NCBI GenBank assembly: GCA_043807785.1
Contig: JAZDFO010000066.1
Location: forward strand, 1 to 33,486
Source: Candidatus Micrarchaeota archaeon
GTDB lineage: Archaea > Micrarchaeota > Micrarchaeia > Norongarragalinales > SBBD01
DNA length: 33,486 nt
Reading direction: 5' to 3'
Part shown: in pieces, positions 3,021-31,441 of the stretch
Position numbering within the stretch: the first letter of the stretch is position 1
Layout of the letters: each line of letters opens with the position of its first letter
The notes under the pieces: generated by a model
Databases searched by the model: none
Seen by the model: the letters and a program-made list of their open reading frames with translations, nothing else
What the model was told of the DNA's origin: nothing
Program-made: the position numbers and the translations under genes

Positions 3021-3557
3021 TCATGATTTTACGCGCGTGTAGGCGCTTCCTTTTGCCTCGTAGAGCAGCCTCAGGATTTCTTCGTAAAACGCTTTGGCGT
3101 TCGTTGCGACCTTCTCCGCTTCAGGAGACCTTATTTCGGAAAGGGAATACGAGGCGGCAATCCTGGTCGTTCGCGCATGTTCGAGCGTTTCGGAAAACTG
3201 GTCGTTAAGCTTCCTGGCCCTCTGCACGAATTTGAGGTATTCCTTTGGAACCCTGCCCTTCTTGAGGTAGAACGAGTCGAATGCAAGCAAGGCGCATTCG
3301 TGCGTCCGGGCTTCAAGGCCAATCAGGTAAAGCGAGGCCATGACCGAGTGGTACATGGAATAATAGCCGGCAATTGCCACCCAATCGTAATGCTTTTTTT
3401 CCCTCAAATCACTCATGGCGGCCAGGTTTTTGTGCGCCTTATCGAGGTGCTGCCCGGCAGTTCCAGTGCTCGGTTCCCTTTTCAACAGCCTGGCCGGGGA
3501 TTCCAGGCTCCCCTCAAAGCATTTCCTTAAGACGAATTCGCTTCTTTCTTCCTTCAT
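3021..3557 (-). CDS. HEPN-domain protein, putative toxin partner of the upstream nucleotidyltransferase
   Basis: 178-aa helical protein that directly abuts the MNT gene (MNT ends at 3558, this ORF starts at 3557). The YYSMYHSVMASLYLIGLEARTHECAL region resembles HEPN, but I did not verify the Rx4-6H motif position. Confidence 0.65.
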   Translation of the reverse strand: MKEERSEFVLRKCFEGSLESPARLLKREPSTGTAGQHLDKAHKNLAAMSDLREKKHYDWVAIAGYYSMYHSVMASLYLIGLEARTHECALLAFDSFYLKKGRVPKEYLKFVQRARKLNDQFSETLEHARTTRIAASYSLSEIRSPEAEKVATNAKAFYEEILRLLYEAKGSAYTRVKS

Positions 3558-4178
3558 TTATGGCTCACCTTGTGAGAGAATGAATTCCCAAAAGCCTTCT
3601 TCCCCCAGCAATACCACGCGATCCTTCCAGATGCTTTTGTATATCGGCTGCGTGTGCCAGTTGCGGGAAAGCTCGCAAAGGCTAATCACGGTTGGCGATA
3701 GTGAGTAGTTGAATTCCCGTTCAAGCAGTTTGACATTTGCTTTGAGCCTTTCGTTCGCTTTTCCGTTTTTGTTGGTGGCGATGAGGAGGTCAATGTCGCT
3801 GGAAGGCGTTGCTTGTTTCCTGGCGGCGCTTCCGTAAAGCAACGCAAATGCTATCGTGCCGTTGGAAGCCGCTTTGAGTGTTTGAAACAGCTTGTACGTC
3901 ATCGGGCCGTACGGGGTCGCGGCAAGGAAGCCTGCTTTCCTCTCGAACTCGAGCAAGGCAAGCAGTTTTATGGCTGACTCGTTTTCCTTGTTTATTGAGA
4001 AAAAAACCTGTTTTCCCCTGGTTTGCCTGTGCAATACCCTTTCTTTTGACAGTAAATCGAGGTAGTGCAGCGCCCTCTCGTGGCTTACTTCAGCGTCGTC
4101 CTCTATCTCTTTTGCGTATTTTTCCGCCCAAGGATTGAGCAGAAAAGCCCTTAACACGCGGTATTTCGGTTCAAGCAT
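3558..4178 (-). CDS. Minimal nucleotidyltransferase (MNT) with an N-terminal winged-HTH; putative antitoxin/regulator of an MNT-HEPN pair
   Basis: The nucleotidyltransferase signature LLYGSAARKQATPSSDIDLLI (GS...DxD) is present. The N-terminal roughly 70 aa look like a wHTH (EVSHERALHYLDLLSKERVLHRQTRGKQVFFSINKE). Confidence 0.85.
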   Translation of the reverse strand: MLEPKYRVLRAFLLNPWAEKYAKEIEDDAEVSHERALHYLDLLSKERVLHRQTRGKQVFFSINKENESAIKLLALLEFERKAGFLAATPYGPMTYKLFQTLKAASNGTIAFALLYGSAARKQATPSSDIDLLIATNKNGKANERLKANVKLLEREFNYSLSPTVISLCELSRNWHTQPIYKSIWKDRVVLLGEEGFWEFILSQGEP

Positions 4179-4198
4179 GGGATAATACGGGCAACAGC

Positions 4199-4242
4199 CA
4201 ATATAAAGGTTGGTTTTCCAACTTCAAAGTTGGTTTTCCAAC
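4199..4242 (-). promoter_or_regulatory. TATA box plus two tandem copies of the palindrome GTTGGTTTTCCAAC (4209-4222 and 4229-4242, 20-bp period); candidate operator for the wHTH-MNT protein
   Basis: Both copies are identical, and each is a 5-bp inverted repeat (GTTGG/CCAAC) around TTTT. The minus strand reads CCTTTATAT at 4201-4209, about 26 nt upstream of the MNT ATG at 4178. The second palindrome ends one base before the carB stop codon at 4243-4245. Confidence 0.5.
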
Positions 4243-7200
4243 CTATGCTAAATCCGTCCCGCCAAACTTTGCATACGGGTGCAGGTCGTTGAGCGAAATT
4301 ATGCCGAGCTCTTCGCGCTTGGAGAGGGATTTGGCCAACGCGATTGCGGCAAAAGCGCTTGTGACGCACGGGATTCCCGTCTCAATGGCTGCCTTGCGGG
4401 CGGCAGGGTCGCCGCGGCCGCTGTGGCTGCGGATGCCGTCGACGACAAAAGACGCCCGGCCGTCGCAAACCATTTTCGCGCCGTCTTGCGCAGAGCCGGA
4501 AAGGACTTCGATTCCCGCAGCGGCGAGGGCGTTGACGACTGCCTTGCGCCACTTGCCGCACTCGCCGACGTACGCAGTCTTGCCAAAACGGTGCCCGGCT
4601 GCAAAAAGCGCCTTGAGGTACGCCTCCTCGAACGAGCGGCCGATTCCCATGACCTCGCCGGTGCTTCGCATTTCAGGAGAAAGCACCGGGTCCAACCCCG
4701 GGAATTTCGGGAACGGGAACACGGGGGCCTTGACGGCGTAATATCCCGCTGGAGGCGCCAGGACGGATTCCAAATCGCCGAAATAGTCGGAAAGCTTTTT
4801 CCCGACCTGCAGGGCTGCGGCAATCTTTGCAATCGGAACGCCGGTTGCCTTGCTCAAGTACGGGATGGTCCGGCTCGCGCGCGGGTTGACCTCGATTACG
4901 AAAACCTCGTCGCCCTTGACGGCCATCTGGATGTTGACAAGGCCGACGGCGCCAAGCGAGCTGCAGATTTTCTTCGAATAGGAGCAGATTCTTTCATGCG
5001 CTTGTGGGGAAATGCGGACTGCGGGGATGGTGCACGACGAGTCGCCGGAGTGCACGCCTGCCTCCTCGATTTGCTCCATTACCCCCGCGATTTTCGTGCC
5101 GGCTCCGTCGCAGAGGGCGTCGACGTCGACCTCGACGGCGTCCTCGAGGAACCGGTCGATGATGATTGCATAGCTTCCGGAGGCGCAAAGCGCATCGTCG
5201 ATTACGCGTTCGAGCTGGCCTTCGCCGTAGACGATTTCCATGGCCCTGCCGCCCAGCACGTACGACGGCCGCACGAGGAGGGGGAAGCCTATTGAGCGGC
5301 ACAGCCCGATTGCCTCGTCGCGGGAGAACGCCACCGCGCTTTCGACGGTGGGAATGCCCAGCCGCACCATGAGCGACTTGAACCGCTTGCGGTTTTGCGA
5401 CGCGTCGATGGAGTCGACGGAAGTGCCGAGCACGTTGACGCCGTTTTCGTGCAGCGCGAGGGCGAGGTTTACTGCGGTCTGGCCGCCGAACTGGACCACC
5501 GCGCCCTCCACATCGCCTTCGTTTTCCAAAACGGACAGCACATGCTCGCCGGTAAGCGGCTCGAAATAGAGTTTTCCTGCGACGTCGAAGTCAGTGCTCA
5601 CCGTCTCGGGGTTGTTGTTTATCACGATTGCCTCGTATCCCAGTTCCTTGAGGGCAAAGACCGCGTGGACAGTGCAATAGTCGAACTCGATGCCCTGCCC
5701 GATGCGGATTGGCCCGCTCCCGAGGATTGCGACTTTCTTCTTCAACGGCGATTTGGGCTGCAGGTCCCCGGGTGCGCCGTTGGCGACGGGGGGCGCAAAC
5801 TCGTAGCTGGAATAATAATACGGGGTGATTGCAGGGAATTCGCCGGCACAAGTGTCAACCATCTTGTATGACGGCAGAATTCCGTGCCGCTGGCGGAAGA
5901 ACCGGACGTTTTCCGCAGAAGTTTTGCACAGCGAAGCAAACTGTCTATCGGAAAACCCGGCGCTCTTGCACTGGCGCAATAGGGCTGGAAAATCGGGGGA
6001 CGTAATGCCTGCGGACTCTACTGATTTTTCAAGGGCGACGATTCTGGCGATTTTTTCAATGAACCACTCGTGGATTCCGGTTTGGGCGGCGATTTGGGAG
6101 GGCGAAAGCCGTCCATCAAAAAGCAGCTTCTTGATGACCGGCAGCCGCAGCTCGTTGGGCTTGAGCAATTCTGCTATGCGCTCCTGCGAGTCAAGCGCGG
6201 GAAGCTCCTTTACGCTTTCCTCGATTGATTGCAGGGCCTTGCTGAGGGCTTCCTCGAAGGACCTGCCGATGGACATCGTTTCTCCAGTGCTTTTCATGGA
6301 AGTGCCAACCGAGCGCGGGTAGCCGAGCTTCTCGAACGGCCATTTGGGGATTTTCACCACGCAATAGTCGAGCGCGGGCTCGAAGGCGGCGGACTTTCCG
6401 GTGATGCGGTTCTCGATTTGCGCCAGCGAATACCCTAGAGCGATTTTCGTCGCCACGCGGGCAATGGGGTAGCCGGTTGCCTTTGATGCAAGCGCGGAAC
6501 TGCGGCTGGTGCGCGGGTTGACCTCGACGATGAAGTATTCGCCGCTGCGAGAGTCGAAGGCGAACTGGATGTTGCACGCGCCGCGCACGCCAAGCGCGCT
6601 GATGATTTTTATCGCGCTTGCGCGCAGCATGTGGTATTCGCGGTCGCATAGCGTCTGTGAGGGGGCGACGACGATGCTTTCGCCGGTGTGCACGCCCATC
6701 GGGTCAAGGTTTTCCATGTTGCATATGGTGATGCAGTTGCCGTCCCCGTCGCGCACCACCTCGTATTCCAGCTCTGCCAGGCCCTCGAGGCTCTTCTCGA
6801 CAAGTATTGAATTGGTGGCGCTTGCGGAGAGCGCAAAGAGCGCGGCGGAATCGAAATCATCTCCCTCATGCACGATGGCAGTGCCGGTGCCGCCGAGGCA
6901 GTAGTCGGGGCGGATGATCACCGGCAAGCCGATTTTACCGACTACCGCGCGCGCAGCCACTATGGATTCCGCCCGGCCGCTTTCCGGAATGGGCTCACCC
7001 AATGACACGACGAGTTTGGAAAAGCGCATGCGGTCTTCGGCAAGCTCGATTGAATCAATCGGCGTGCCAAGCACCTTCACTCCGTATTTTTCAAACGCCT
7101 GGCGGAGCGAGACTGCGAGGTTGAGGCCGGTCTGCCCCGCCATGGTGGCGATGACGCCGTCGGGGCGCTCGCGCTCGATGATTTTCTCGACGGTCCCTGG

Positions 7201-7422
7201 GTCAAGCGGCTCAATATAGATTCGGTCTGCGGAATCGAAGTCAGTCTGGATGGTCGCCGGGTTGCTGTTGACGAGAACGACCTCTATCCCCTCCTCTTTC
7301 AAGGCGCGGCAGCATTGCGTCCCGGAATAATCGAATTACCGCCTAACGAGCTATGCTCGCTTGGTTTCGGCCGCCTGGCCGATTACAATGGGACCGCTGC
7401 CTATGACTAGTACTTTGCGCAT
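4243..7422 (-). CDS. carB: Carbamoyl-phosphate synthase large subunit, interrupted. Exon 1 is 7422..7366 (MRKVLVIGSGPIVIGQAAE), a 30-nt intervening sequence is 7365..7336, and exon 2 is 7335..4243.
   Basis: ORF 4243..7302 shows the duplicated ATP-grasp architecture of CarB (VLVNSNPATIQTDFD and IVINNNPETVSTDFD repeats) and, with the N-terminal segment added, is about 1049 aa. Hand translation upstream of the annotated Met continues as FDYSGTQCCRALKEEGIE. The missing N-terminus is found 30 nt further upstream in the same frame. Confidence 0.9.
7336..7365 (-). other. 30-nt in-frame intervening sequence in carB (ACCAAGCGAGCATAGCTCGTTAGGCGGTAA); candidate BHB-type mini-intron
   Basis: It contains TAG and TAA in frame and sits exactly between GQAAE and FDYSG. 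It folds by hand into a 3-nt bulge, a 4-bp helix and a 3-nt bulge plus an intron hairpin (details in findings). Confidence 0.6.
7393..7419 (-). repeat. Proximal copy of the duplicated carB start segment (CGCAAAGTACTAGTCATAGGCAGCGGT, encoding RKVLVIGSG)
   Basis: 23 of 27 nt are identical to 8492..8518. All four differences are synonymous third-position changes, and this copy uses the A/T-ending codons. Confidence 0.85.
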
Positions 7423-7432
7423 ATTCGGAATT

Positions 7433-8536
7433 TTAGGTATGCTCATCACCCCGCAAGACTGCCTTATGAAGCCGTTGCGCCTTAATTTTTTGAGTAAAGT
7501 TGATTTTATTGTAAAACTGACGCACATCATATTTTCGGTTAACGATAATCCCGCGCACCACTCGTTCACAATCACCAACATGGTATCGCCGTGCAACATA
7601 TGGCCGCGTCGATACTATTCCGAAGTCAGCAAGCAATTTTCGGATATCCTCCAAATACAGAATAAAATCCAAGTCAATAGAATTTGCCCGGGTAAAATGC
7701 AGGTTGACATTCCTTGCAGCGTAATTCTCCGAATAGAGCACGGAGCCGTCATCGTCGAAAAGAGCCTGCAAAAAGGCTTTCTTCAATTCCATCGTACCGG
7801 CCATTATCCAATCTGGGACGCTGAGGATGGAAAACACCTTCCTCCCACGCGGAGCGCCGGCAATTTCAAGGATGCGGCCGACAAGCGAGGAGAAACTGAC
7901 TTTGCACGTTCCGTCACCATTCGACCCGGAATAAGTCGGAAAAGAGTGAAAAACAGCCTCGACATCAGTTTTAACCCTCTCAATCAGTTGCAGGTCGCCG
8001 TTGACGTAGTCGAACTCCGCCTTCTTCGAGCTGATATTCCCGTCTCCAAAGCAATGCCCCACCAATCCTGCCAATGCAACAGATTCAATTATTGGAAAAT
8101 GCACGAAAACCTTGCCGCCTCGACTGGAAATTATTTTTAAAACCCGTGATTCGGCATCAATACAAGAAAGCCCGTGCAATGACAAGAGCTTTTTCAAAGT
8201 CGAAAGCCGGATCCCGTGCCGGCCATTTTTAAGGTGATAAAAGTAAGACTTTGAAACGCCCAATTGAACAGGCGCAGAATTGTAGTCTAGGCTCTCGAAG
8301 AGGCTGCGCCTAAACCCGTCGTCCAGCTTTATAATAAAATCTTCCGGCAAGTCAGCCAAATGTATTTCCATAGGCGCAACCGAGCATTTCAAATGCAATA
8401 AAATATCCGCACACGGATAACCACGCGGCAGAATAAACGATTTTCGAAACCTCGTTTCCGGTGCGCTGGTGAGCGCAAAGCTGCCCTCACTACCGCTGCC
8501 GATGACAAGCACCTTGCGCACTCCGGCGGGGTTCAT
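7433..8536 (-). CDS. Double-motif LAGLIDADG homing endonuclease with an HTH-like N-domain. As drawn it is fused in frame to a relic of the carB start (MNPAGVRKVLVIGSG). An independent start at Met 8371 (MEIHLADL) is plausible.
   Basis: Two LAGLIDADG motifs are present: ALAGLVGHCFGDGNI and KAFLQALFDDDGSV. The body is visibly AT-richer than its flanks. The minus strand reads ATATTTTATTGC at about 8395-8406, roughly 30 nt upstream of ATG 8371. The stop codon is at 7433-7435, 10 nt before the carB ATG at 7422. Confidence 0.85.
   Translation of the reverse strand: MNPAGVRKVLVIGSGSEGSFALTSAPETRFRKSFILPRGYPCADILLHLKCSVAPMEIHLADLPEDFIIKLDDGFRRSLFESLDYNSAPVQLGVSKSYFYHLKNGRHGIRLSTLKKLLSLHGLSCIDAESRVLKIISSRGGKVFVHFPIIESVALAGLVGHCFGDGNISSKKAEFDYVNGDLQLIERVKTDVEAVFHSFPTYSGSNGDGTCKVSFSSLVGRILEIAGAPRGRKVFSILSVPDWIMAGTMELKKAFLQALFDDDGSVLYSENYAARNVNLHFTRANSIDLDFILYLEDIRKLLADFGIVSTRPYVARRYHVGDCERVVRGIIVNRKYDVRQFYNKINFTQKIKAQRLHKAVLRGDEHT
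8492..8518 (-). repeat. Distal copy of the duplicated carB start segment (CGCAAGGTGCTTGTCATCGGCAGCGGT)
   Basis: See 7393..7419. This copy uses G/C-ending codons like the rest of the host genes, and it follows an ATG (8536) that overlaps the preceding stop codon as ATGA. Confidence 0.85.
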
Positions 8537-9063
8537 GAGGGGTTCCCCCGGCCTATTCGCTTGCGCTCCAATTCTTCCAACCGTTTGATACCAGCTGTAA
8601 AAGAATGGCGCGTGGATAGCCCCAGAGTGTGGTTCAAATAATCGAGCATGCCGGTTTTCGGGTCATGCACGGCAAGCCCGCCGGGATGTAATTTTTCGAG
8701 ATGCCGGTATACCGCCCTTAACAAATCACGGGCTATCCCCGCTTTTCTCTCGTAATCGTAGAATTTGCGAGGACCCGATTCCAAAGTCGGCTCATAGGGG
8801 TAGAAGATGGAAAAAACAAATTCGTTAGGAGGATCATTGCGCACTACAACGTGCCCCATCCGGTCCCCTAGAGTTGCCGTTTTCTCAATCATCAGCCTCT
8901 CAAGTGCTGGATTTGAGAAGAAGGCTACTGCGGATGGAGGAAGCGATTTTTCGCGGGCAAATATTGTCGTGAACTTGTAAGCACGCACAATACCCTGGGA
9001 GCCCAATCTTTCGAGTACCACCGCTAGCCCGAGCCGCCCAATGTCCTCAATTTCTCTCTTCAT
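8533..9063 (-). CDS. Hypothetical 176-aa protein wedged between carA and the carB-start relic
   Basis: This is the in-frame Met (MKREIEDIGRLG...) of ORF 8533..9159. Its ATG overlaps the carA stop as ATGA (9063-9060), and its TGA overlaps the next ATG as ATGA (8536-8533). I recognise no domain. The stretch KAGIARDLLRAVYRHLEK is only weakly reminiscent of an acyltransferase motif. Confidence 0.55.
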   Translation of the reverse strand: MKREIEDIGRLGLAVVLERLGSQGIVRAYKFTTIFAREKSLPPSAVAFFSNPALERLMIEKTATLGDRMGHVVVRNDPPNEFVFSIFYPYEPTLESGPRKFYDYERKAGIARDLLRAVYRHLEKLHPGGLAVHDPKTGMLDYLNHTLGLSTRHSFTAGIKRLEELERKRIGRGNPS

Positions 9064-10166
9064 AGCATTTTCACGAAGTCGTCGAAAAGGTAGTTTGCGT
9101 CTGCCGGGCCGCACGAGCCCTCGGGGTGGAACTGGCACGAAAATACCGGCAGCTCGCAATGGCGCAGGCCCTCGTTGGTGCCATCGTTGCAGTCCTCGAA
9201 GGTCGGCTTGACTCCCTGGGGCAAATCCTTGACGGCGTAGCCGTGATTCTGCGATGTGATGAAAATCCGTCCCGTCTCAAGGTTTCGCACCGCGTGGTTT
9301 GCGCCGCGGTGGCCGAATTTCAGCTTGTAAGTCGACGCGCCCAAGGCGTGCGCGAGAAGCTGGTGCCCAAGGCATATGCCGAATACGGGCATTTTCTTCA
9401 ATAGTCCGCGCACGGTGGAAATGGTTGGCGCAAGCAGCGCCGGGTCGCCCGGGCCGTTGGAGACAAGCAGCCCGTCCGGCTCGCTTTTTAAAATGTCTTC
9501 GCCGGATGCGTCGAATGGAAACAGCTCGACGGCGACATTCCTTGCAAGCAATTGGCGCACGATGCTTTCCTTTACCCCGCAGTTGATGAGCGCTACCTTC
9601 TTGGACCAGCCCTCCGGCTCGCGCAAGGACCTTTCCTTGCACGACACCTGCCCGACGAAGTTGATGCCGCCGTAGTCGTAGGAACGGATTTTTTCTAGCG
9701 CGCGGCTCGCAGCCTCGGCTGCGCTTTCGGATGGTTGCAGCGGCATCACTGCTGCGGGCATGACGCCTTTCTCGCGCACCCGCAGCACGATGTCGCGCGT
9801 GTCAACGCCGCAGATGCCGGGTATTCCGTGGCTCGAGAGGAATTCGCCAAAGCCCTGCGTTGACTTCGGATGGCAAGAGAACGACGAAACCTCCCTTGCG
9901 ACAACGGCGCGCAAGTGCGGCTTGGCCGATTCAAGCCATTCGCCGGAGATTCCGTAATTTCCCACGAGTGGGTAGGAAAAAGCGAGGATTTGGCCGGCAT
10001 ACGAAGGGTCGGTGACGGCTTCGGGGTAGCCGGTCATGGCGGTGGAAAAGACGAGCTCGCCGACGGATTCGGCAACTGCACCGAATTGGCTGCCCTCGTA
10101 GACGGAACCGTCACAGAGGGCCAATATGGCGCGTTGCGCACTGGATACTGGCGGGGTCGGCTTCAT
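9060..10166 (-). CDS. carA: Carbamoyl-phosphate synthase small subunit (glutamine amidotransferase)
   Basis: Class-I GATase nucleophile elbow FGICLGHQLL, the His/Glu region CQFHPEG, and 368 aa. Confidence 0.95.
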   Translation of the reverse strand: MKPTPPVSSAQRAILALCDGSVYEGSQFGAVAESVGELVFSTAMTGYPEAVTDPSYAGQILAFSYPLVGNYGISGEWLESAKPHLRAVVAREVSSFSCHPKSTQGFGEFLSSHGIPGICGVDTRDIVLRVREKGVMPAAVMPLQPSESAAEAASRALEKIRSYDYGGINFVGQVSCKERSLREPEGWSKKVALINCGVKESIVRQLLARNVAVELFPFDASGEDILKSEPDGLLVSNGPGDPALLAPTISTVRGLLKKMPVFGICLGHQLLAHALGASTYKLKFGHRGANHAVRNLETGRIFITSQNHGYAVKDLPQGVKPTFEDCNDGTNEGLRHCELPVFSCQFHPEGSCGPADANYLFDDFVKML

Positions 10167-10998: not shown

Positions 10999-11580
10999 AT
11001 GGGCCTGTTAAACATCACCGCCAAGGCAAGCAGGGCAATCAATTCAAGGCCCGCGACAATCGTGCTCGTAGTCTTGGGCATCGTCGCTTGCATACTCCTG
11101 TTCCCGCGGCTTTACGCCGACGGCGGGATTTCGAGGAAAGAGGCGCTGGGCGAGGCGGTGGTGGTATTCGTGCCGCTTCTTTTTGCCAAGCTGCTCAACC
11201 TCCTGCTCCTTTCGTTCTCGGACTTCGCCCTCTCGCGCAGCCCGGAAAAACGCATCACGCAAGCCAGCACCGCAAAGGCAAAGGCGCGCATTTTCCGCAT
11301 ACTGGCGGAAAGGAAAAACAAGTACTGCTTTTTGGATTCGGTCACGCTCGGCAGCGAAAGGCACCTGCTCTCCGCGGCAAGGAAAATCGCAAAAGCCTTC
11401 GGGGCCAACAACGAGCCGCCGTCCATAATCATGTGCGAGGACCCGTTCGTGCTCATCAGGGTAAGCGCGTCTTGGCGGCCCGGCACGCACGAGGAATGCA
11501 CGATGCTGCACATGCATTCATCGGACGCAAGGGGCCATGTGCTCTCAAAGCTCATCTCAAGCTCGCTTGAAACAGCCTGA
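10999..11580 (+). CDS. Membrane protein, paralog of 10296..10988
   Basis: Start taken at MGLLNITAK. It has the same architecture as its neighbour and aligns by eye: KARIFRILAERKNKYCFLDSVTLGSERHLL...IIMCEDPFVLIRV against RARVTKILSDKDVKYQSLENLALGGEKSIL...LIFVCADEPFIVIKI. Confidence 0.6.
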   Translation: MGLLNITAKASRAINSRPATIVLVVLGIVACILLFPRLYADGGISRKEALGEAVVVFVPLLFAKLLNLLLLSFSDFALSRSPEKRITQASTAKAKARIFRILAERKNKYCFLDSVTLGSERHLLSAARKIAKAFGANNEPPSIIMCEDPFVLIRVSASWRPGTHEECTMLHMHSSDARGHVLSKLISSSLETA

Positions 11581-11671
11581 AAGCCAGCCGCTTGACCCGC
11601 CGCAAAATCAACCACGGGTTAATCCAGGTTATACCAGACAATTATTAGCCTGCGGGCGCAAAAAAAGGCGC

Positions 11672-13033
11672 ATGGGGCACCCGGGCTGGGAATTCACCTG
11701 CGCAGGCGGCGCGCAATATTGCGCCGGCGAGAGCCTGCGCCTTTCGCAGGCCGAAAGCGAGGTCCTTGCGGCTGCGCTCAAAATCCACCTGGAGGCAGGC
11801 GACGGGGAAAAAAGCCGCGGCACGCATTGGGCACTCCTGCAGGCGTGCAAGGCGCGCAGGCTGGCGCTGGGCAGGGAAAGGGCCTCGGCAGTTGAAACCG
11901 CAATGGAAATGGCGCTCTGCGGCACTGGAATCCTGGGAAAGCTCATCGAAGACGACGCCATCGAGGAAATCAGCGTAATCGGCGCCAACAAGCCAGTGCG
12001 CGTCTATCTGCGCGGCCGCGGATGGAGGCTCACCGACGTGGCGCTCACCTCCGAGGAATTCGCGGTCAGCGCGGTAAACCGCCTCGCGCGGCCGCTTGGC
12101 CGCAGGCTCACGTATTCGACGCCGAGGCTCAACGCAGCAATGGGGCGCATGCGCATCCACGCGAGCATGCCCCCGGCGTCGCGCGAAATAGAAATAACGA
12201 TACGGAAATTCACCGCCGAGCCGTTCTCCATGCCGTCGCTTATCCGCTGCGGGATGATAAGCGCGCGCGCAGCAGCATTCCTTTGGCTTGTCGCGGCAGC
12301 CGACTCCTCCGTATTAATCGCCGGCAACACCGGCAGCGGCAAGACCACGCTGCTCAACGCGATTTTCTCCTTCGTGCCTGCGCAGGAGCGCGTAATCGCA
12401 ATCGAGGAGACGCCGGAAATGCAGGTGCCGCAGGAGCACTGCGTGAGGCTGCTTGCAAGCGAAAAGCTCGGCATCAGCATGCAGTCGCTGGTGCAGGACA
12501 GCCTGCGCATGAGGCCCGACCGGGTGGCAATCGGCGAAGTCCGCACGCCACAGGAGACGCGCGCACTCATGGACTCGCTCTTATCAGGCCAGGCAAAGGC
12601 CGCCTACGCGACTTTCCACGCCAACTCCGCTGCCGAGGCGCTCACAAGGCTTGCGGCGCTCGGGGCATTGGAAAGCGAGCTGGATTCGATAAAGTGCATC
12701 GTAGTTTGCAGGCGCGCGACGCTGCTGGGCGGCAAGGCATCCGGAAAGGGGGCAACGGAGGAGAGGAAGGTTACTGAAATTGCGGAAGTCGCCCAAGGCA
12801 AGGCCGTAAGCCTCTACACTGCGGATGGTTCAATGCTCAAGCCCACCAAGGCCCTAAATTCAAGCAAGCTCCTCTCCTCACTCGAAGCAAATTACGGGAG
12901 GGGCAGGCGATGGATGCTTGAAGAAATCAGGGAAAGGGCGGATTTTCTCGGCAAGCTCGCAGCCAAGCCCATTCCTTACAGGGAAGCGAACAAGGCGATT
13001 TGGGAGAGGAAAGAAGCGCTACCAGGCGACTGA
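11672..13033 (+). CDS. Type II/IV secretion-family ATPase (PilB/FlaI/VirB11/CpaF superfamily)
   Basis: Walker A is LIAGNTGSGKTTLLNA. The Asp box is RVIAIEETPEM, Walker B is MRPDRVAIGEVR and the His box is ATFHANS. Start chosen at Met 11672. Confidence 0.85.
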   Translation: MGHPGWEFTCAGGAQYCAGESLRLSQAESEVLAAALKIHLEAGDGEKSRGTHWALLQACKARRLALGRERASAVETAMEMALCGTGILGKLIEDDAIEEISVIGANKPVRVYLRGRGWRLTDVALTSEEFAVSAVNRLARPLGRRLTYSTPRLNAAMGRMRIHASMPPASREIEITIRKFTAEPFSMPSLIRCGMISARAAAFLWLVAAADSSVLIAGNTGSGKTTLLNAIFSFVPAQERVIAIEETPEMQVPQEHCVRLLASEKLGISMQSLVQDSLRMRPDRVAIGEVRTPQETRALMDSLLSGQAKAAYATFHANSAAEALTRLAALGALESELDSIKCIVVCRRATLLGGKASGKGATEERKVTEIAEVAQGKAVSLYTADGSMLKPTKALNSSKLLSSLEANYGRGRRWMLEEIRERADFLGKLAAKPIPYREANKAIWERKEALPGD

Positions 13034-14029
13034 CTCGGCGTCGATGCGCGCGCGCTGGGAAGGCAGGCGGCGCAAGCCGATGCGCTTGGATAACTGGAAC
13101 AGCCCGGCCAAGGCTATCATGCCACCGTTGTCCCCGCAGTATTCCAATGGCGCGGCCCCGAAGCGCGCGTTGTGCTCTTTGGCAGCCAACGCGAGCATTG
13201 CCGAAAGCCTCTTGTTGCGCGCGTTCCCGCCAACCAAAAGCAGTTCCTTGGCGCCGTAAACGGAGAGAGCCTTCTCGGCGCACTCGCATATCATGGAAAA
13301 AGCCGTCTCCTGCACGGAATAGCAAAGGTCTGGCGGTGAAGCGACTGCCTTTTGGGATGCGGTAAGGAGTCCCGAAAACGACATGTTCATTCCCTTCACG
13401 CTATAGGGCAGCGGCACGAGGTTGCGGCCCTTGCGCGCCGCCTCGAGCACGCCCACCGCGTCAGGGGGTGAAAGCGAGAGGTTCCTGCCGACCAAATCGA
13501 GCATGTTTCCCGCGCCGATGTCAAGCGTTTCCCCGACGATTTGGTAATGCCGTTTCCCGGGCTTGCCGCCCAGGCGGAGAATCTGCGTGTTGCCGCCGGA
13601 AACATACGCCACGACTGGGGCGCGCATGCGGGTGAAAAAGCGGCCGACTTCCGCGTGCGCCAGCGCGTGGTTGACGCCAACGAGGGGAATGCCCAGCGAT
13701 TCACAAAGCGTTTTGGCGGCGACAAAGCCGACGTGAAGCGAGTGCCCCAGGCCCGGGCCGTAAGAGTAAGCCACGGCATCCAAATCGCGGGGCTTTATTG
13801 ACGCCTTGTCGAGTGCGCGCAAGGCCACTTCCTTGAAGTGCTTTGCATGGTGGTCGGCGAGCTTGCGGGGAATGAACCCCTCGCGCAGGGAAGGGTATTT
13901 CGCGGACTCATTGGAGAGAATGCGCGTCGATTTGCCAAACGGCGCGGACATGCTTCCCCTCGCTACCCCGACGCCAAGCGTGTGAGCAGTGCATTCGATT
14001 CCCAATACGAGGCGTGATGAGGTTTTCAT
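13019..14029 (-). CDS. kae1: Kae1/TsaD-family tRNA N6-adenosine threonylcarbamoyltransferase
   Basis: N-terminal LVLGIECTAHTLGVGV, the metal-binding region GVNHALAHAE, and YVSGGNTQ. Start set at MKTSSRLVLGIE (14029) rather than at the track start 14050. Confidence 0.9.
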   Translation of the reverse strand: MKTSSRLVLGIECTAHTLGVGVARGSMSAPFGKSTRILSNESAKYPSLREGFIPRKLADHHAKHFKEVALRALDKASIKPRDLDAVAYSYGPGLGHSLHVGFVAAKTLCESLGIPLVGVNHALAHAEVGRFFTRMRAPVVAYVSGGNTQILRLGGKPGKRHYQIVGETLDIGAGNMLDLVGRNLSLSPPDAVGVLEAARKGRNLVPLPYSVKGMNMSFSGLLTASQKAVASPPDLCYSVQETAFSMICECAEKALSVYGAKELLLVGGNARNKRLSAMLALAAKEHNARFGAAPLEYCGDNGGMIALAGLFQLSKRIGLRRLPSQRARIDAESVAW

Positions 14030-14103
14030 GCTGTAACCATGCACCGTCAAAGTTGGTCAAGATGAACCGGGTTAATATAGGTCAACCCACGCATTTTTTG
14101 CAT

Positions 14104-14532
14104 ATGAAAATCATTTACAAACAGGTTCAAACAATCAACGAATTTATCGACGCAATCAGGTTAAGGGCCGATGTTTTTATTAAAGAACAGGGGTTTCAAC
14201 CCGGATGGGAACCCGATGAGGATGACAAGAAGTCCGTTCATTATATAGCAATATGCGGCGGGAAGGTTGTCTCAACTGCGCGGCATAGGGAAACTGCGAA
14301 GGGAGAGATTAAGATTGAGCGTATGGCCACAGCTAAAGATTACAGGGGAAAAAATATCGGCAGGGGGCTGGTTGTTTTCATGATTGATGAAATCAAAACG
14401 CTTGGGCCGAAACGAATCTGGTTAAGAAGCCAGGTCCAATCACAGAAGTTCTACGAAAAATGCGGGTTTGCCGCCGTTTCAAAGCCATTCGACCAATGGG
14501 GAGTCCCGCACATAGACATGGAACATGCATAG
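14104..14532 (+). CDS. GNAT-family N-acetyltransferase (AT-rich insert)
   Basis: GNAT motif A is YRGKNIGRGLVVFMIDE, with C-terminal KFYEKCGF. This is the internal Met (MKIIYKQ) of ORF 14014..14532. G+C is visibly lower than in the flanks. Confidence 0.85.
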   Translation: MKIIYKQVQTINEFIDAIRLRADVFIKEQGFQPGWEPDEDDKKSVHYIAICGGKVVSTARHRETAKGEIKIERMATAKDYRGKNIGRGLVVFMIDEIKTLGPKRIWLRSQVQSQKFYEKCGFAAVSKPFDQWGVPHIDMEHA

Positions 14533-14539
14533 GCAGGCA

Positions 14540-14603
14540 GGTTCCCTTCAATTGCCGACGCGACCAGCGCGTAGGCAGTGCATTCGATTCCAAGGACGAG
14601 CAT
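14540..14603 (-). pseudogene. Orphan relic of the kae1 5' end (MLVLGIECTAYALVASAIEGN...)
   Basis: The 17-nt core GCAGTGCATTCGATTCC at 14575-14591 is identical to 13986-14002 in the live kae1 gene. The ATG at 14603 gives MLVLGIECTA, after which the sequence diverges. Confidence 0.6.
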
Positions 14604-14688
14604 GGGCGACCGGACAAAGCAATGCGGCGCGGGGTTATAAAATCGTTGCCGCAGTAATTGTTCGCTTCAAGCGGGGGGAAAACGGAGG

Positions 14689-16191
14689 GTGGCACTGCAG
14701 CGCGCGCAATTGGTTGAAAGGCTAGCGCAGCGCGGGGTCATCATGGCGCCGGCGGCGCTCGAGGCCCTCGCAGGCGAGGAATCGGCGCTGGAATACATCG
14801 ACGAGATTGCCGGCTCGTGCAAGGAATTCGTCGTGAGCGAAAAGACAGTCGCCGGCTTTTTGGAAGGCAAGGGACTCGTAAACAAGGTCGTGCAGGTCGA
14901 GGCGGGGGAAGCAAGCGGATTTGACCCCCCGGCAAAGCACGTCGAATCGATGCTCGAGCTTTCAATCAAGGACAGCGACGTGACCGGCAAGTCCAAGTGC
15001 GGCGGCAACGTCGAGGACTTCGTCCGCCATTTCCGCAACAGGTTCGAGCGCCAGCGCGACGCCCTTCGCGGAATGCGCACGGACAGCTTCGGGACGTTTT
15101 CCATCCGCGACGCCAAAGAGCAGGTCAACAAGGAGTTCCGCGTCATCGCCATGGTCTACGACAAGAAGGTGACGAAAAACGGGCACCTGCTCATTGAAAT
15201 CGAGGACGAAGGCGGCACGGCAAACGCGCTTGTCCCAAAGGACTCGCCGCTAATGCCCGAGGCGCTCAAGATAATCCAGGACGAGGTCCTCGCCCTCGAC
15301 GTGTACGCGTCGAAATCCAAGCTCCTCATCGTAAAGGGGTTCAAGCTCCCCGGCAGCATGCTGCAGGAAAAGAGAAAGAGGCTCATCGCAGACGACATCA
15401 GCATAGCGTTCATCAGCGACATCCACATCGGCAGCAGGTACTTCATGGCCGAAAACTTCCAGCGCATGATAAGATTCCTCAACGGCCACGGCAGCGAACA
15501 GGAACGCGAGATTGCCGGCAAAATCAAGTACATTTCCATCGCAGGCGACCTCGTCGACGGCATCGGCGTCTTTCCCAACCAGGAAAAGCAGCTGCTCACG
15601 AAAAACATTTACACACAATACGAGATGCTCGGCGAGTTCCTCAAGGCGATTCCCCCGCATATCGAGGTGATAATCGCGCCCGGCAACCACGACGGCGTGC
15701 GCCTTGCCGAGCCCCAGCCCTCGCTGCCCGCGGAGTTCACCGAGAGCGTGAAAGGCCAGGCCAACCTGCACTTCGTGGGCAACCCGTCGCGGCATTCAAT
15801 CCACGGACTCGAACTGCTCATATACCACGGCACGAGCATCGACGGCCTCATCGCGCACTCGGCCGCGCTCAAGCAGGGATACGACCGGCCGGAAATCATG
15901 GGAGCGTTCATGCTCTCGCGCCGCCACATGTGCCCGCTCTACGGCGAGGACGCGGTGGTCCCCGAGGAATTCGATTACCTGCTGATTGGCGACACCCCCG
16001 ACATTTTCCACTTCGGCCACATCCACCGCAACGGCCACATAGAAGACTACAACGGCACGTTCATCGTCAACTCCGGAACATGGCAGGACCGCACAGACTA
16101 CCAGGTGCGCATGGGCCACAACCCCACGCCGTGCCTGCTGCCCGTGTACTCGCTCAAGACCGGAAAAGTGCAGGTGCTGAATTTCAAGTAA
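14689..16191 (+). CDS. DNA polymerase D small subunit (DP1, 3'-5' exonuclease)
   Basis: Calcineurin-like phosphoesterase motifs (ISDIHIGS, AGDLVDGIG, PGNHD, GHIH), about 500 aa, and it lies upstream of DP2. The exact start is uncertain (GTG 14689 or TTG 14710). Confidence 0.9.
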   Translation: MALQRAQLVERLAQRGVIMAPAALEALAGEESALEYIDEIAGSCKEFVVSEKTVAGFLEGKGLVNKVVQVEAGEASGFDPPAKHVESMLELSIKDSDVTGKSKCGGNVEDFVRHFRNRFERQRDALRGMRTDSFGTFSIRDAKEQVNKEFRVIAMVYDKKVTKNGHLLIEIEDEGGTANALVPKDSPLMPEALKIIQDEVLALDVYASKSKLLIVKGFKLPGSMLQEKRKRLIADDISIAFISDIHIGSRYFMAENFQRMIRFLNGHGSEQEREIAGKIKYISIAGDLVDGIGVFPNQEKQLLTKNIYTQYEMLGEFLKAIPPHIEVIIAPGNHDGVRLAEPQPSLPAEFTESVKGQANLHFVGNPSRHSIHGLELLIYHGTSIDGLIAHSAALKQGYDRPEIMGAFMLSRRHMCPLYGEDAVVPEEFDYLLIGDTPDIFHFGHIHRNGHIEDYNGTFIVNSGTWQDRTDYQVRMGHNPTPCLLPVYSLKTGKVQVLNFK

Positions 16192-16259
16192 CCAGCGGAA
16201 ACGCGCTTGCGGAAGGCTTAAATAGCTGTTTTCCGAATAATGAGAACAGGCTGATTAAG

Positions 16260-16535
16260 ATGACAAATGCGAATATTCGGATTAGGACTGTTTTCGTCAA
16301 CGACCGCGGGCAGATAGTCATCCCGGAGGACATCCGCAGGGACCTGGGATTGAAGGCAAACGAGGTGCTCGTGCTCATCGAGAAGGCGGGGCACATGCTT
16401 TTGCGGAGGGAAAAGGACGTCGCCCACCGTTTCGGCGCTGACGAGGAGGAGTCGTTCTGGAGGGCGCTCTCGCTAAAGGCGCTCGAAAACGCCTGGGACG
16501 AGAAGGACGCCGCGTGGGACAAGGTAAAGAAGTGA
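16260..16535 (+). CDS. AbrB/SpoVT-fold antitoxin (MazE-like)
   Basis: MTNANIRIRTVFVNDRGQIVIPEDIRRDLGLKANEVLVL is a swapped-hairpin AbrB-type motif. This is the last third of track ORF 15930..16535. Candidate TATA CTTAAATAGC lies about 35 nt upstream. Confidence 0.75.
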   Translation: MTNANIRIRTVFVNDRGQIVIPEDIRRDLGLKANEVLVLIEKAGHMLLRREKDVAHRFGADEEESFWRALSLKALENAWDEKDAAWDKVKK

Positions 16536-16541
16536 TTCGCG

Positions 16542-16880
16542 ATGATGCAGGGGGAGCTGGTCTGGGTACGGTTTCCTTACTCCGACTTGCAGCAGGAAAA
16601 AATCAGGCCTACCCTCGTGGTATCGAATACTGAATACAACCGGAAGAGCCCGGACGTTGTCGTCTGCGCGGTGACGTCCAACCTCGAGCCAAGGCCTTAC
16701 AGCATCGCACTGCCGCAGGACCAAGTGACGGACGGCAAGCTGCCTTTGCCAAGCCGCATCCGGGCGGACAAGATCATGCAAGTCAGCCAAAGCATGGTGC
16801 TCAAGGCCTTCTGCAGGGTAAAGCCCGCAGTATTCGACAGCACCTTGCGCGAAATCCAGCGGTTGACCAAACGGGAATAG
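16542..16880 (+). CDS. MazF/PemK-family endoribonuclease toxin
   Basis: GELVWVRFPYSDLQQEKIRPTLVVS plus VVCAVTSN plus SRIRADKIMQVS match the PemK fold signature. It starts 6 nt after the antitoxin gene ends. Confidence 0.85.
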   Translation: MMQGELVWVRFPYSDLQQEKIRPTLVVSNTEYNRKSPDVVVCAVTSNLEPRPYSIALPQDQVTDGKLPLPSRIRADKIMQVSQSMVLKAFCRVKPAVFDSTLREIQRLTKRE

Positions 16881-22911: not shown

Positions 22912-24078
22912 TTGGGCGTTGAATTCGAGCTTGACGAAGACCGAATAATAGTGCGGGACCTCATCTCAGTTCAAGCGCTCGACAAGGGATATTTCGGCAG
23001 CGAAAACCCGCAAAGCAAGGCCCAGCTCATACTCATGCCCGAAGAGGCGCTCTACCTCATTGACGTGCGCAACGCCACCTGCAGGCGCGGCAAGCGCGAC
23101 GCGTCCTTCAACGAAGTCGCGCGCAAGTTCTCCAAGGCCAAGAAATTCCTCGCAAGGTACTACTGCTACCGCGACTGGCGCGACCGCGGGCTCATTGCAC
23201 GCTCGATTGCCGAAGCGCACGGAGACTACGGCCGCAGCCCCGTATCGAAATACCCGTCGAAGGAAACCCGCTTTGAGCAAGTCAAGGCCCGCGCGCTATT
23301 CTTCACCGACGACCTCATGGCGGTAATTGACGACGACGAGGAAGGCCGCAGGCTCTACGAACAAGGATGGTTCGGGCAATTCGGCACCTACAAGGCCAAA
23401 AAGCACGGCCGGTTCCTCAAGCTCGACGCATACGAGACACTGTTTTTGATGCGCCACGCAGGGCTCAAAACCAATATCATCGAAAAGAAGCTCCTCAAGG
23501 AATGCCTGCGCCGGCGCGCGGACTTCCCCGCGCTCTACGAAGTCTACGAGGACTGGAGGCTGCGCGCCTTCGTGCTCAAGACCGGGTTCAAGTTCGGCAC
23601 GCACTTTAGGCTCTACTTCCCTGGTGCGTCGCCGGCGCTCGCCAACGACGAGTGGATGCACAGCAAGCACGTGATACAGGTCTTCCCCAGGGAAAGCAAG
23701 ATGCTCATCAGCGAGTGGGCGCGCGCAATCCGCGTCGCGCACGGAGTGAAAAAGACGTTCATTTTGGCGATTCCGGGCGCCAAAAAGCCAACTGAAGGCG
23801 CAAGCGCTGATTTTCTGCTCTACCACCGCAAGAAAGGCGGCCTGATAGAGAACCCGAAAGAGGACACTCCGAAATACGCAATGCTTGCGTTGAGCGAAGA
23901 GGAGGAAATCGGCGGCGAAGAGCTCGCCGGCGCAATCGACAACGCCAAGAACTTAGGGCTCGACCTCATGCTTTCAATCTGCGACCGCGAGACCTCGATA
24001 ACGCACTACCGCGTCAAGCGCGTCGAGCTCCCGAAAAGCAAGTACGAATACTACGAGATTGAATGGACGCAGCCGTGA
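22912..24078 (+). CDS. endA: tRNA-splicing endonuclease, single-chain three-unit architecture (388 aa)
   Basis: The central catalytic unit reads ALYEVYEDWRLRAFVLKTGFKFGTHFRLY ... HSKHVIQVF ... RVAHGVKKTFILA, giving candidates for a Tyr/His/Lys triad. An N-terminal EndA-like unit contains YCYRDWRDRGLIARS, and a third C-terminal unit follows. The start appears to be TTG 22912. Confidence 0.85.
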   Translation: MGVEFELDEDRIIVRDLISVQALDKGYFGSENPQSKAQLILMPEEALYLIDVRNATCRRGKRDASFNEVARKFSKAKKFLARYYCYRDWRDRGLIARSIAEAHGDYGRSPVSKYPSKETRFEQVKARALFFTDDLMAVIDDDEEGRRLYEQGWFGQFGTYKAKKHGRFLKLDAYETLFLMRHAGLKTNIIEKKLLKECLRRRADFPALYEVYEDWRLRAFVLKTGFKFGTHFRLYFPGASPALANDEWMHSKHVIQVFPRESKMLISEWARAIRVAHGVKKTFILAIPGAKKPTEGASADFLLYHRKKGGLIENPKEDTPKYAMLALSEEEEIGGEELAGAIDNAKNLGLDLMLSICDRETSITHYRVKRVELPKSKYEYYEIEWTQP

Positions 24079-24242: not shown

Positions 24243-24440
24243 ATGTCGGTTCTGACTGTTGAATTCCGGGGCGTGCTTGAGGATGTCCTGACCGCCCTGG
24301 TCAAGCAAGGGTATGCCAAGACGAAGTCTGAAGCGCTGCGCATGGCGCTTTTGCATTACGGCGAGGAGCTCGGGCTGGTGCATAGCAGGCTGCACGCGAA
24401 GGCCGAGGAATACGCCTACGCCGAAATCAAGTCCAGGTGA
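24243..24440 (+). CDS. VapB-type antitoxin (small DNA-binding protein)
   Basis: 65 aa. Its stop codon overlaps the start of the downstream PIN gene (GTGA at 24437-24440). Confidence 0.6.
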   Translation: MSVLTVEFRGVLEDVLTALVKQGYAKTKSEALRMALLHYGEELGLVHSRLHAKAEEYAYAEIKSR

Positions 24441-24826
24441 GCCGCATGTATCTGGACGTAGACGTGCTTTACGCGCTGGTGAAGGAAAAGGACTTCCACA
24501 AAGAATACGCCGAAAGGATTACTGCAACGGCGGGCGCCAAGGTAACGTCCTGCGTTTCCCTCCTCGAGCTCGAAATCGTCGTCAAGCGCGAGCTCGGGGA
24601 CGAGAAAAGCATGGAAATTGACCGGTGGGTCCGCAGGCTCGTGCCCGGGATTGACATTGCCGAATTTACGGAAAAACAGTTCGCCAAGAGCCTCGAATTG
24701 AGGAAAAAATACGGGCTGGGAATATTCGACGCCGTCCACGCCGCGGTTTGCCTGGAGAAGGGAGGGCAGATGGCATCGACCGACCACGCCTTCGACCGCG
24801 TGCCCGGAATCGCCAGGATAAAATAG
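24437..24826 (+). CDS. vapC: PIN-domain ribonuclease toxin (VapC)
   Basis: The four acidic PIN residues are in the expected order: YLDVDV, LLELE, IFDAVHAA and STDHAFD. Length is about 129 aa. Confidence 0.85.
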   Translation: MSRMYLDVDVLYALVKEKDFHKEYAERITATAGAKVTSCVSLLELEIVVKRELGDEKSMEIDRWVRRLVPGIDIAEFTEKQFAKSLELRKKYGLGIFDAVHAAVCLEKGGQMASTDHAFDRVPGIARIK

Positions 24827-24873: not shown

Positions 24874-25038
24874 GCGAAGAGCTCGCCTGCGCAATCGACA
24901 ACGCCAAGCACCTCGGCCTCGACCTGATGCTCTCAATCTGCGACAGGGAAACCCAGCATCACACACTACCGCGTCAAGCGCGTCGAGCTCCCGAAAAGCA
25001 AGTACGAATACTACGAGATTGAATGGACGCAACCCTAG
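24874..25038 (+). pseudogene. Displaced, frameshifted copy of the endA 3' end
   Basis: It aligns with 23915..24078. The last 68 nt before the final few codons are identical (24964-25031 = 24004-24071). The upstream part differs mainly at synonymous positions and carries a 1-nt insertion that breaks the frame. Confidence 0.8.
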
Positions 25039-25056: not shown

Positions 25057-25144
25057 CGACACGCGTCCGCGGAGACTTCGCGTCTCCGGGGCGCCGAAGA
25101 CTGGTGGTCTTCGAGCGGGGGGGAGTCTTCCCCCAGAGGTGTCG
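25057..25144. other. 88-nt cloverleaf-like module: three GC-rich hairpins closed by a 6-bp stem
   Basis: The closing stem is CGACAC (25057-62) with GTGTCG (25139-44). Hairpin 1 is CGGAGAC-TTCGC-GTCTCCG (25070-88). Hairpin 2 is CGAAGAC-TGGTG-GTCTTCG (25096-114). Hairpin 3 is GGGGGA-GTCT-TCCCCC (25119-34). Hairpins 1 and 2 differ by a compensatory G-C to A-T pair. Confidence 0.4.
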
Positions 25145-25148
25145 AATG

Positions 25149-25176
25149 CTACGAGATTGAATGGACGCAGCCGTAG
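25149..25176 (+). repeat. Third, short copy of the endA 3' terminus (CTACGAGATTGAATGGACGCAGCCGTAG)
   Basis: 26 nt (25149-25174) are identical to 24051-24076 at the end of the live endA gene. This copy ends in TAG rather than TGA. Confidence 0.75.
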
Positions 25177-31333: not shown

Positions 31334-31441
31334 GCCTCCGTAGCTCAGCAGCAGAGCGCCTGTCTTGTAACCCGCCGCGCCCCGGTTCCGCGCGATGGGA
31401 AGGAAAACAGGAGGTCGAGGGTGCGACCCCCTCCGGAGGCT
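31334..31441 (+). tRNA. tRNA-Thr (anticodon UGU) with a 36-nt BHB intron at the canonical 37/38 position (31370..31405)
   Basis: Folded by hand. The acceptor stem is GCCTCCG/CGGAGGC, the D arm is GCTC-AGCAGCA-GAGC, and the anticodon stem is CCTGT/ACAGG with loop CTTGTAA. The T arm is GAGGG-TGCGACC-CCCTC and the discriminator base is T. Intron bulges are UA|A and AA|A, the central helix is CUUG/AAGG (with one G.A mismatch), and the intron helix is CCC/GGG plus CGCGC/GCGCG. An AT-rich box TTAAAAAC lies about 26-33 nt upstream. Confidence 0.85.

Follow-up and report, generated by a model that had tools for sequence, protein, structure and literature searches.

A GNAT gene of foreign composition inserted in the first codons of kae1 in a micrarchaeon, with replacement of the gene start and survival of the ancestral start

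The stretch of DNA analysed here, termed the window, comprises 33,486 nucleotides of Candidatus Micrarchaeota archaeon (contig JAZDFO010000066.1 of assembly GCA_043807785.1; GC ~57%) and carries kae1, the gene of the KEOPS N6-threonylcarbamoyladenosine (t6A) synthase Kae1/TsaD. t6A is a universal tRNA modification and Kae1 is essential or nearly so in most studied organisms; a cell should survive an insertion in the first codons of kae1 only if the gene is rebuilt by the incoming DNA. We report such an insertion. An insert of ~530 bp within a 589-bp unit, in which a GNAT acetyltransferase gene is the only open reading frame (ORF) with a Pfam match, separates the live kae1 from its ancestral start, which survives on the far side as a short relic facing DP1, the gene of the DNA polymerase D small subunit. 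The live gene reads from a new start codon that lies in the insert. We favour, at a probability of about 0.55, a reading in which foreign DNA carrying a 5′ fragment of kae1, probably circular, was integrated by a single reciprocal crossover at a 17-nt core coding for the motif G-I-E-C-T-A (GIECTA).

The original prediction placed the live start of kae1 at ATG 14029 on the minus strand and a second kae1 start at ATG 14603, beyond a GNAT gene on the opposite strand. Both starts are confirmed, the second one reading MLVLGIECTAYALVASAIEGN, and so is the identity of 17 nt between them, which consists of two copies of the 17-mer GCAGTGCATTCGATTCC (coordinates in Table 1). The 17-mer is embedded in a direct repeat of 40-46 nt with 80% identity and a spacing of 589 bp. 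Pairwise alignment rules out a chance match. The best local alignment of the two kae1 ends has a score of 46, compared with 15.7 ± 2.2 for shuffled sequences (maximum 27, n = 2000) and 32 for the best of 922 other window segments, and no exact direct repeat of at least 17 nt within 1 kb was found in shuffled windows.

The divergence between the two ends is distributed very unevenly. Ungapped, in-frame comparison of the live copy and the relic reveals 3/9 mismatches in the head, 0/17 in the core and 22/43 in the tail, and the contrast between core and tail is significant in a Fisher test (p = 8e-5). The head differences are all synonymous (GTA/GTC and TTG/CTT), and the anticipated codon contrast of CTC GTC CTT in the relic versus CTC GTA TTG in the live gene is borne out. 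The decaying similarity claimed on the 3′ side of the core is weak at the nucleotide level, yet the relic frame remains Kae1-like. A gapped DNA alignment implying a 2-nt frameshift in the relic was rejected because the in-frame translation is Kae1-like.

The relic is an in-frame Kae1 N-terminus of 24 codons or 72 nt, running from 14603 to 14532 (MLVLGIECTAYALVASAIEGNLPA). It displays the modal Kae1 form M-x-x-L-G-I-E, observed at 99 of 160 loci, and its tail YALVASAIEGN still reads as Kae1 when compared with the family pattern HT[LF]G[AV]S.V.GN. The best Kae1 matches of the window in species-representative genomes are found in metagenome-assembled genomes of Micrarchaeota, L001 (69% identity) and L002 (57%), and a wider protein search adds the relatives L169 (65%) and L170 (56%). 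Among 163 kae1 loci, the relic tail is most similar to L169 (20/33 nucleotide matches) and L170 (19/33), with a background of 11.4 ± 2.7, and it matches the live copy and L001 at 15/33 and 12/33 positions, respectively. Of the two tails, the live one is nearer to L001 (21/33; 22/33 by hand count in codon register). This sequence evidence speaks against a tandem duplication with later decay as the source of the two kae1 ends, whose tails are of different ancestry, a point that the original prediction had missed.

DP1 is the conserved neighbour that defines the ancestral site. In L001, kae1 (MIILGIECTAHTFGV...; MIILGIECTAHT...) and DP1 are divergently oriented, the 83 bp that separate them being empty, and in L084 (47% Kae1 identity) kae1 is likewise directly divergent from DP1, without a GNAT gene. 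The empty site, in which kae1 adjoins DP1, is therefore seen in two relatives. In the window, the relic ATG is separated from DP1 by 85 bp, and this intergenic region matches that of L001 at 57/85 positions (z 6.7), including the TATA-like box (ACGATTTTATAACCCC versus ACGATTTTTTAATCCC). The spacer upstream of the live start, by comparison, does not resemble the intergenic region of L001 (z -0.3). The relic start and the adjoining intergenic region are thus evidently ancestral, as judged from alignment with the empty site. No GNAT homologue was encountered near kae1 in the 163 screened kae1 loci or in L169-L171. The junction itself is spanned exactly, from the GNAT 3′ end through the relic to DP1 (14509-14758), by an independent Logan contig of run X1 (same strain, ~3x depth). 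The proposal that a single-gene cassette landed in the first kae1 codons while giving the gene a new start finds support in the empty site, the synteny on the relic side and the composition of the insert. We also note that the DP1-kae1 interval of L170 (2711-4995) holds two other genes, encoding a protein of 174 aa and a 582-aa Pro/Thr-rich protein, and that L169 has a different gene upstream of kae1, so that this flank of the gene varies across the clade.

The live gene encodes a full-length Kae1. The protein covers positions 14-263 of the 264 of the Pfam TsaD model (2e-65), that is, the full-length domain, and aligns end to end with homologues. The match to NCBIfam arch_KAE1 extends over model positions 1-323 from residue 8 onward and scores 337.8 bits, which is under the equivalog cutoff of 375 bits. 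The N-terminus is 5 residues longer than the modal form (MKTSSRLVL versus MLVL), an extension that is absent from L001, L169 and L170. Third positions are A or T in 8/14 of codons 2-15 versus 76/321 of the remaining codons (p = 0.009). This enrichment, confined to codons 2-15, places a composition break at the 3′ edge of the core. The codons GGA/GAA/ACT are used in both window cores. Host codon usage gives this combination a joint probability of 0.011, and GNAT-like, or cargo, usage one of 0.10; the choice is ~9x likelier under the latter. The exact window 17-mer does not occur in any of the 163 other kae1 loci, where the best match is 16/17, and L001 and L169 have in common a GC-ending version of the core, GGCATCGAGTGCACCGC.

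The spacer between the live kae1 and the GNAT gene is presumed to act as a new bidirectional promoter for the two genes. Live kae1 probably depends on this spacer, in which a near-palindromic TATA box might be used by both of the divergent genes (TATA-like boxes were identified by eye throughout). As for the start codon, we estimate that reading upstream into random DNA encounters an in-frame start before a stop about half the time (3 starts versus 3 stops), which the original prediction did not consider. The presence of a start in the inserted DNA is therefore, by itself, no evidence of adaptation.

The cargo is foreign in composition. The AT-rich interval predicted at 14051-14573 corresponds to a real low-GC block with different bounds, 14003-14532 (GC 0.44-0.45; 0.40-0.47 across the GNAT gene); positions 14533-14574 lie outside the block, have a GC of 0.64 and are part of the kae1-like relic. 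The GNAT gene has a GC of 0.45 and a GC at third codon positions (GC3) of 0.51, versus a GC3 of 0.72-0.83 in host genes. All NCBIfam matches of the protein fall below cutoff, the closest being ElaA-like (PRK10314) and MSMEG_0567. Homologues of equal length with 60-77% identity are distributed across DPANN archaea and the bacterial candidate phyla radiation (CPR). The closest source-named ones (69-76%) are annotated as Woesearchaeota, Pacebacteria (CPR), Nanoarchaeota and Aenigmarchaeota, and those from Micrarchaeota reach 61-62% only; a foreign origin is thus indicated by GC3 as well as by the best named homologues. The homologues bear a TATA-like box ~30 nt before the ATG, as does the window gene, which suggests that the GNAT gene probably arrived with its own promoter. 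In the 7 homologue contexts checked, the gene never adjoins kae1 or an integrase, and in several of them it adjoins a NUDIX gene. A GNAT toxin-antitoxin module of the TacT/AtaT type was considered and rejected, as 14030-14603 contains no second Pfam-matched ORF and PADLOC gives no match; the other long frames in this interval are a 50-aa relic frame and frames overlapping GNAT.

Table 1. Features of the kae1-DP1 region, with positions in the window
Feature	Position	Strand	Remarks
T2SSE-type ATPase	11537-13033	+	
Live kae1 (KEOPS t6A synthase Kae1/TsaD)	13019-14029	-	336 aa, full length; Pfam TsaD 2e-65
Core copy 1	13986-14002		GCAGTGCATTCGATTCC; minus strand encodes G-I-E-C-T-A (partial); putative crossover or conversion tract
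Live kae1 head, cargo-supplied	14003-14029	-	new ATG and MKTSSRLVL, rich in A/T-ending codons; GC 0.44
Divergent spacer, cargo-borne	14030-14103		74 bp; TATA-like TTAATATA at 14072-14079, 32 nt before GNAT ATG
GNAT acetyltransferase, ElaA-like	14104-14532	+	142 aa; Pfam Acetyltransf_10 7e-16
Relic tail	14533-14574	-	kae1-like codons 11-24 and third base of codon 10 (YALVASAIEGNLPA); abuts GNAT stop; GC 0.64
Core copy 2	14575-14591		identical to 13986-14002
Relic head	14592-14603	-	ancestral start and codons 2-4, ATG CTC GTC CTT (MLVL); N-terminal architecture as in L001 and L169
Ancestral DP1-kae1 divergent intergenic region	14604-14688		TATA-like TTATAAAA at 14635-14642, 32 nt from relic ATG
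DP1 (DNA polymerase D small subunit)	14689-16191	+	Pfam DNA_pol_E_B and Metallophos; 75% identity to L001 DP1

The ancestral kae1 promoter and start survive in the window and open a 50-codon relic ORF (14451-14603, minus strand) that runs antisense into the GNAT 3′ end. The old promoter, with its TATA-like box, appears intact and would transcribe this ORF antisense to the end of the GNAT gene; oligo-T runs on the relic strand (14460-14456 and 14354-14349) could end such a transcript before kae1. The relic ORF might act as an antisense transcript. In genome annotation, it could be miscalled as a gene.

According to the reading that we favour, kae1 of the ancestor (start MLVLGIECTAHT) would have been divergent from DP1 across ~85 bp. 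The incoming foreign DNA, small and probably circular, would have combined an ElaA-like GNAT gene and the TATA box belonging to it with a short spacer and with a 5′ fragment of kae1 of ~32 codons, MKTSSRLVL-GIECTA-YALVASAIEGNLPA. One reciprocal crossover, or a conversion tract, would then have taken place inside the 17 nt that code for GIECTA, the most conserved N-terminal motif of Kae1. Three products are expected from such an event. The first is a live kae1 with a foreign head (the first 9 codons, the start and the upstream spacer), the core and the native body, probably transcribed from a promoter in the cargo spacer. The second is the GNAT gene, and the third is the 72-nt relic, in which the ancestral start, still behind the promoter region of the ancestor, would be linked through the core to the degenerate kae1 tail of the cargo. 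The crossover could have been catalysed either by host homologous recombination at the 17-nt identity or by a site-specific recombinase acting in trans.

Several observations weigh against this proposal. The closest available relative, L001, has a Kae1 identity of only 69%; scanning metagenomes with Kae1 gave nothing above 48% identity, a search of 5.8 billion proteins gave nothing above 70%, and exact-protein look-ups of the window Kae1 and GNAT matched no record. L001 was at first regarded as a clear sister lineage, and this was dropped: relative to the window, L001 and L169 have Kae1 identities of 69% versus 65% and T2SSE identities of 57% versus 59%. The two are about equally near, so phylogeny by itself cannot name the native tail, and the phylogenetic argument was downgraded accordingly. 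The assignment of the native tail rests on the composition signal of 14 codons together with the argument from the core. The relic tail, supposedly derived from the cargo, is GC-rich, unlike the rest of the cargo. The only runs with the sequence, X1 and X2 (a ~90% identical strain), are low-depth contig sets. Their contigs stop at 13927 and restart at ~14568, and the X2 data fall short of both junctions. Neither a free or circular form nor a second copy of the cassette was found in the metagenome and viral-contig scans. Finally, a reciprocal crossover yields identical cores only if the parents were already identical there, or if conversion took place, and 17 nt is short for homologous recombination.

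The kae1 case is not isolated in the window, as repeats of gene ends around inserted ORFs are present at three other loci. The likeness to endA and carB that was claimed in the original prediction is real for endA, and carB has a comparable 5′-end repeat. The endA 3′ end is present in three copies, a live one (23915-24076), a relic (24874-25036) and a short third copy (25143-25174). These copies enclose a VapB-like/PIN (VapC) pair (24243-24826) and a spacer of 106 bp that is GC-rich and hairpin-prone. An identical core of 68 nt is common to the live copy and the relic, and their arms differ by 11 synonymous versus 2 nonsynonymous codons and a 1-nt indel. The differences being mostly synonymous, the arms point to diverged functional alleles rather than decay. 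The endA cargo, too, is without a recombinase and follows the same logic as the kae1 case. At carB, the 5′ end coding for RKVLVIGSG is repeated on the minus strand (7393-7421 and 8492-8520) around a LAGLIDADG ORF. At a tRNA, the 3′ 23 nt are repeated 197 bp downstream (31617-31639) with 96% identity, around a 49-aa hydrophobic ORF. Four unrelated cores occur within 33 kb, and no recombinase was found in the insert or in the 30 ORFs scanned, which speaks for a general process driven by homology; a helper recombinase from another part of the genome is conceivable.

Further observations were made at these loci. The upstream carB copy (MNPAGVRKVLVIGSG) is fused in frame to an intein-type LAGLIDADG ORF of 367 aa (7433-8536, GC3 0.53), and a 208-aa ORF without Pfam match (8533-9159) lies between this ORF and carA; in L170 carA and carB overlap directly. 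The true start of carB is ATG 7422, and the gene contains a 30-nt in-frame insert, ACCAAGCGAGCATAGCTCGTTAGGCGGTAA, at 7336-7365 on the minus strand, which bears two stops, lies between the conserved GQAAE and FDYSG motifs and contains a 6-bp stem (fold z -2.9 in a 91-nt context). Either carB is a pseudogene, or the insert is removed or bypassed at the RNA level. Directly downstream of carB, on the minus strand, a HEPN gene (3021-3557) and a nucleotidyltransferase gene (3558-4178) with a lower GC of 0.50-0.52 form what is likely a toxin-antitoxin-type cassette; self-blast did not find a carB 3′ relic. The tRNA (31334-31441) is called by Rfam, as intron-containing, at 51.7 bits, with no ARAGORN call. 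An IS630-family (DDE_3) transposase gene is located at 31793-32809, in a low-GC region that reaches the end of the window. On the other side of the kae1 region, DP1 is followed by a MazE/MazF (PemK) pair (16257-16880) and then by DP2; L001 has a different unknown ORF in the corresponding position (3867-4541), and the polymerase genes of L170 are 19 bp apart (1033-1053). The contents of the DP1-DP2 junction differ across the relatives, which makes it another recurrent insertion site. In L170, DP2 directly adjoins DP1 and carA directly adjoins carB. The carA-carB inserts and MazEF, like the GNAT gene, are therefore specific to the lineage of the window.

Among the explanations that compete with a crossover at the core, one that we regard as unlikely takes the unit for a remnant or satellite of a site-specific integrative element. 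In this explanation, a tyrosine-recombinase element at the kae1 5′ end would have been deleted down to GNAT and the att sites, or an integrase-less element resembling a cis-mobilisable element (CIME) would have been mobilised in trans. The unit does present the classical attL/attR picture, with an identical 17-nt core, diverged arms (3/9 and 22/43) and a target gene end replaced by cargo-like sequence; dusA islands swap a 5′ end likewise (PMC4482086), and, elsewhere in the window, a tiny ORF lies between two copies of a tRNA 3′ end. Nevertheless, there is no integrase domain in the insert or in the 30 window ORFs scanned with Pfam, and the four targets with unrelated cores would need several recombinase specificities. 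The viral-contig scans also speak against it, having revealed no Kae1 fragment and no predicted hybrid junction, and for GNAT only one partial match of 27% identity. The insert does not qualify as an established mobile element of other kinds either. The 589-bp unit contains no integrase of the dusA-type tyrosine-recombinase islands. An integron cassette was rejected, as no inverted-repeat pair is found near 14003 or 14533-14591 and no integrase in the scanned ORFs, and an insertion sequence or transposon was rejected on the lack of inverted repeats at the insert boundaries and of a transposase in the unit, the IS630-family gene being ~17 kb away.

A one-sided homologous replacement, or homology-facilitated illegitimate recombination, appears about as improbable to us. 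It would make the whole 72-nt relic native. A GNAT-spacer-kae1′ donor would have recombined deeper in kae1, while an illegitimate join of its GNAT end to native codon 24 would have duplicated the gene start, and the identical core would reflect mere conservation of the GIECTA codons. The resemblance of the relic to the kae1 start of L169, with MLVLGIECTA identical and the tail match described above, is in line with this proposal; L169 is about as near the window as L001. The relic is, moreover, GC-rich throughout except in the core, and the cores of L001 and L169 are identical to each other, so that identical cores between relatives do occur. On the other hand, the AT-rich signal in live kae1 ends at the core and codons 16-336 are host-like, and it is the live tail that is closest to L001. 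Both cores contain three non-preferred A/T-ending codons, the improbable combination under host usage noted above, and a one-sided event offers no reason for 0/17 mismatches beside 22/43. The composition break and the common unusual core thus disfavour it relative to a crossover at the core, as far as sequence can tell.

An insertion with long target duplication, after which the upstream copy decayed neutrally, is very improbable. The two copies would have been native and identical at first, with the in-frame ATG arising by chance, which, by the estimate given above, happens about half the time in random DNA; integrase-free insertions with direct target duplications of >30 bp are documented for restriction-modification units (PMC2853133). 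This explanation is largely refuted by the strongly non-uniform divergence (0/17 in the core versus 22/43 in the tail), and it fits poorly with head differences that are all synonymous and with a relic tail nearer to kae1 of other lineages than to the live copy. The last possibility, that there was no insertion but a chance match, a chimeric contig or an ancestral GNAT-kae1 arrangement lost in relatives, could draw on the apparent origin of the window in a metagenome assembly and on the distance of the relatives, and can practically be dismissed in view of the alignment statistics, the independent X1 contig and two relatives with the empty arrangement and an intergenic region homologous to the relic side.

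If a crossover at the core did take place, the case provides a concrete recombinase-free route by which a reduced DPANN genome can take a foreign gene into an essential locus. The route hinges on one crossover at an identity island of 17 nt, the cargo supplying the start codon and, probably, the promoter. In the same 33 kb, comparable gene-end repeats accompany two cassettes of the toxin-antitoxin type, an ORF resembling homing endonucleases and, at a tRNA, a tiny ORF. Gene flux in these organisms may therefore proceed routinely in this way, which may also account for toxin-antitoxin cassettes that move without visible mobility genes. A far broader proposition, which we consider doubtful, is that micro-cassettes without a recombinase bring new genes to Micrarchaeota, and perhaps to other DPANN archaea. 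Each of these would carry a short mimic of the end of a conserved host gene with its own start or stop and promoter. A single crossover within the best-conserved codons could integrate it without harm to the essential target, and it could be excisable via the same repeats and mobile between lineages. The kae1/GNAT, endA/VapBC, carB/LAGLIDADG and tRNA/49-aa-ORF loci would all be instances of it.

The arrangement has partial counterparts among known systems. Genomic islands and prophages of the dusA type insert within a tRNA-modification gene, at its 5′ end (Farrugia et al. 2015, PMC4482086); they supply a replacement 5′ end and promoter, and the original 5′ end remains on the far side, between direct repeats (PMC4482086). 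The window insert similarly swaps the 5′ end of a tRNA-modification gene and leaves a remnant. The dusA islands differ in being bacterial, kilobases to tens of kilobases in size and equipped with a dedicated tyrosine integrase, in contrast to the 589-bp unit of a DPANN archaeon, which holds a single GNAT gene, lacks a recombinase and has kae1 as its target.

A second counterpart is the insertion of a restriction-modification unit with long target duplication, reportedly described by Nobusato in 2000. In the insertions studied by Furuta (2010, PMC2853133), repeats of >30 bp correspond to a single-copy target in a relative and no mobility gene is involved; that survey of restriction-modification units recovered no archaeal case (PMC2853133). 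The absence of a mobility gene from the insert and the empty site in a relative are both found in the window as well, where a small unit is likewise bounded by direct repeats. The repeats are near-identical in the restriction-modification cases, whereas only 17 nt are identical in the window, the arms are of different ancestry and the cargo is not a restriction-modification unit. The kae1 insertion was not assigned to this class, which has near-identical repeats of >30 bp, on account of the 17-nt identity and the 22/43 mismatches in the tail.

CIMEs and integron cassettes resemble the unit in being small cargo without a recombinase of its own, which would rely on functions in trans. They differ from it in that no helper element, attC-like hairpin or IntI was seen in the window, and its repeats are fragments of the target gene rather than element-specific sites.

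Campbell-type single crossover is known from laboratory integration of suicide vectors, and homology-facilitated illegitimate recombination is said to have been described by de Vries and Wackernagel in 2002. The kae1 locus has in common with these the one-sided homology, the duplication of a segment around the insert and the chimeric copies. It differs in the extremely short homology, a 17-nt identity in ~45 diverged nt, and in being a natural event, in which an essential gene was kept because the insert provided a start codon and, probably, a promoter. The case amounts to a gene-end-replacing integration of a single gene, without a recombinase, in a DPANN archaeon.

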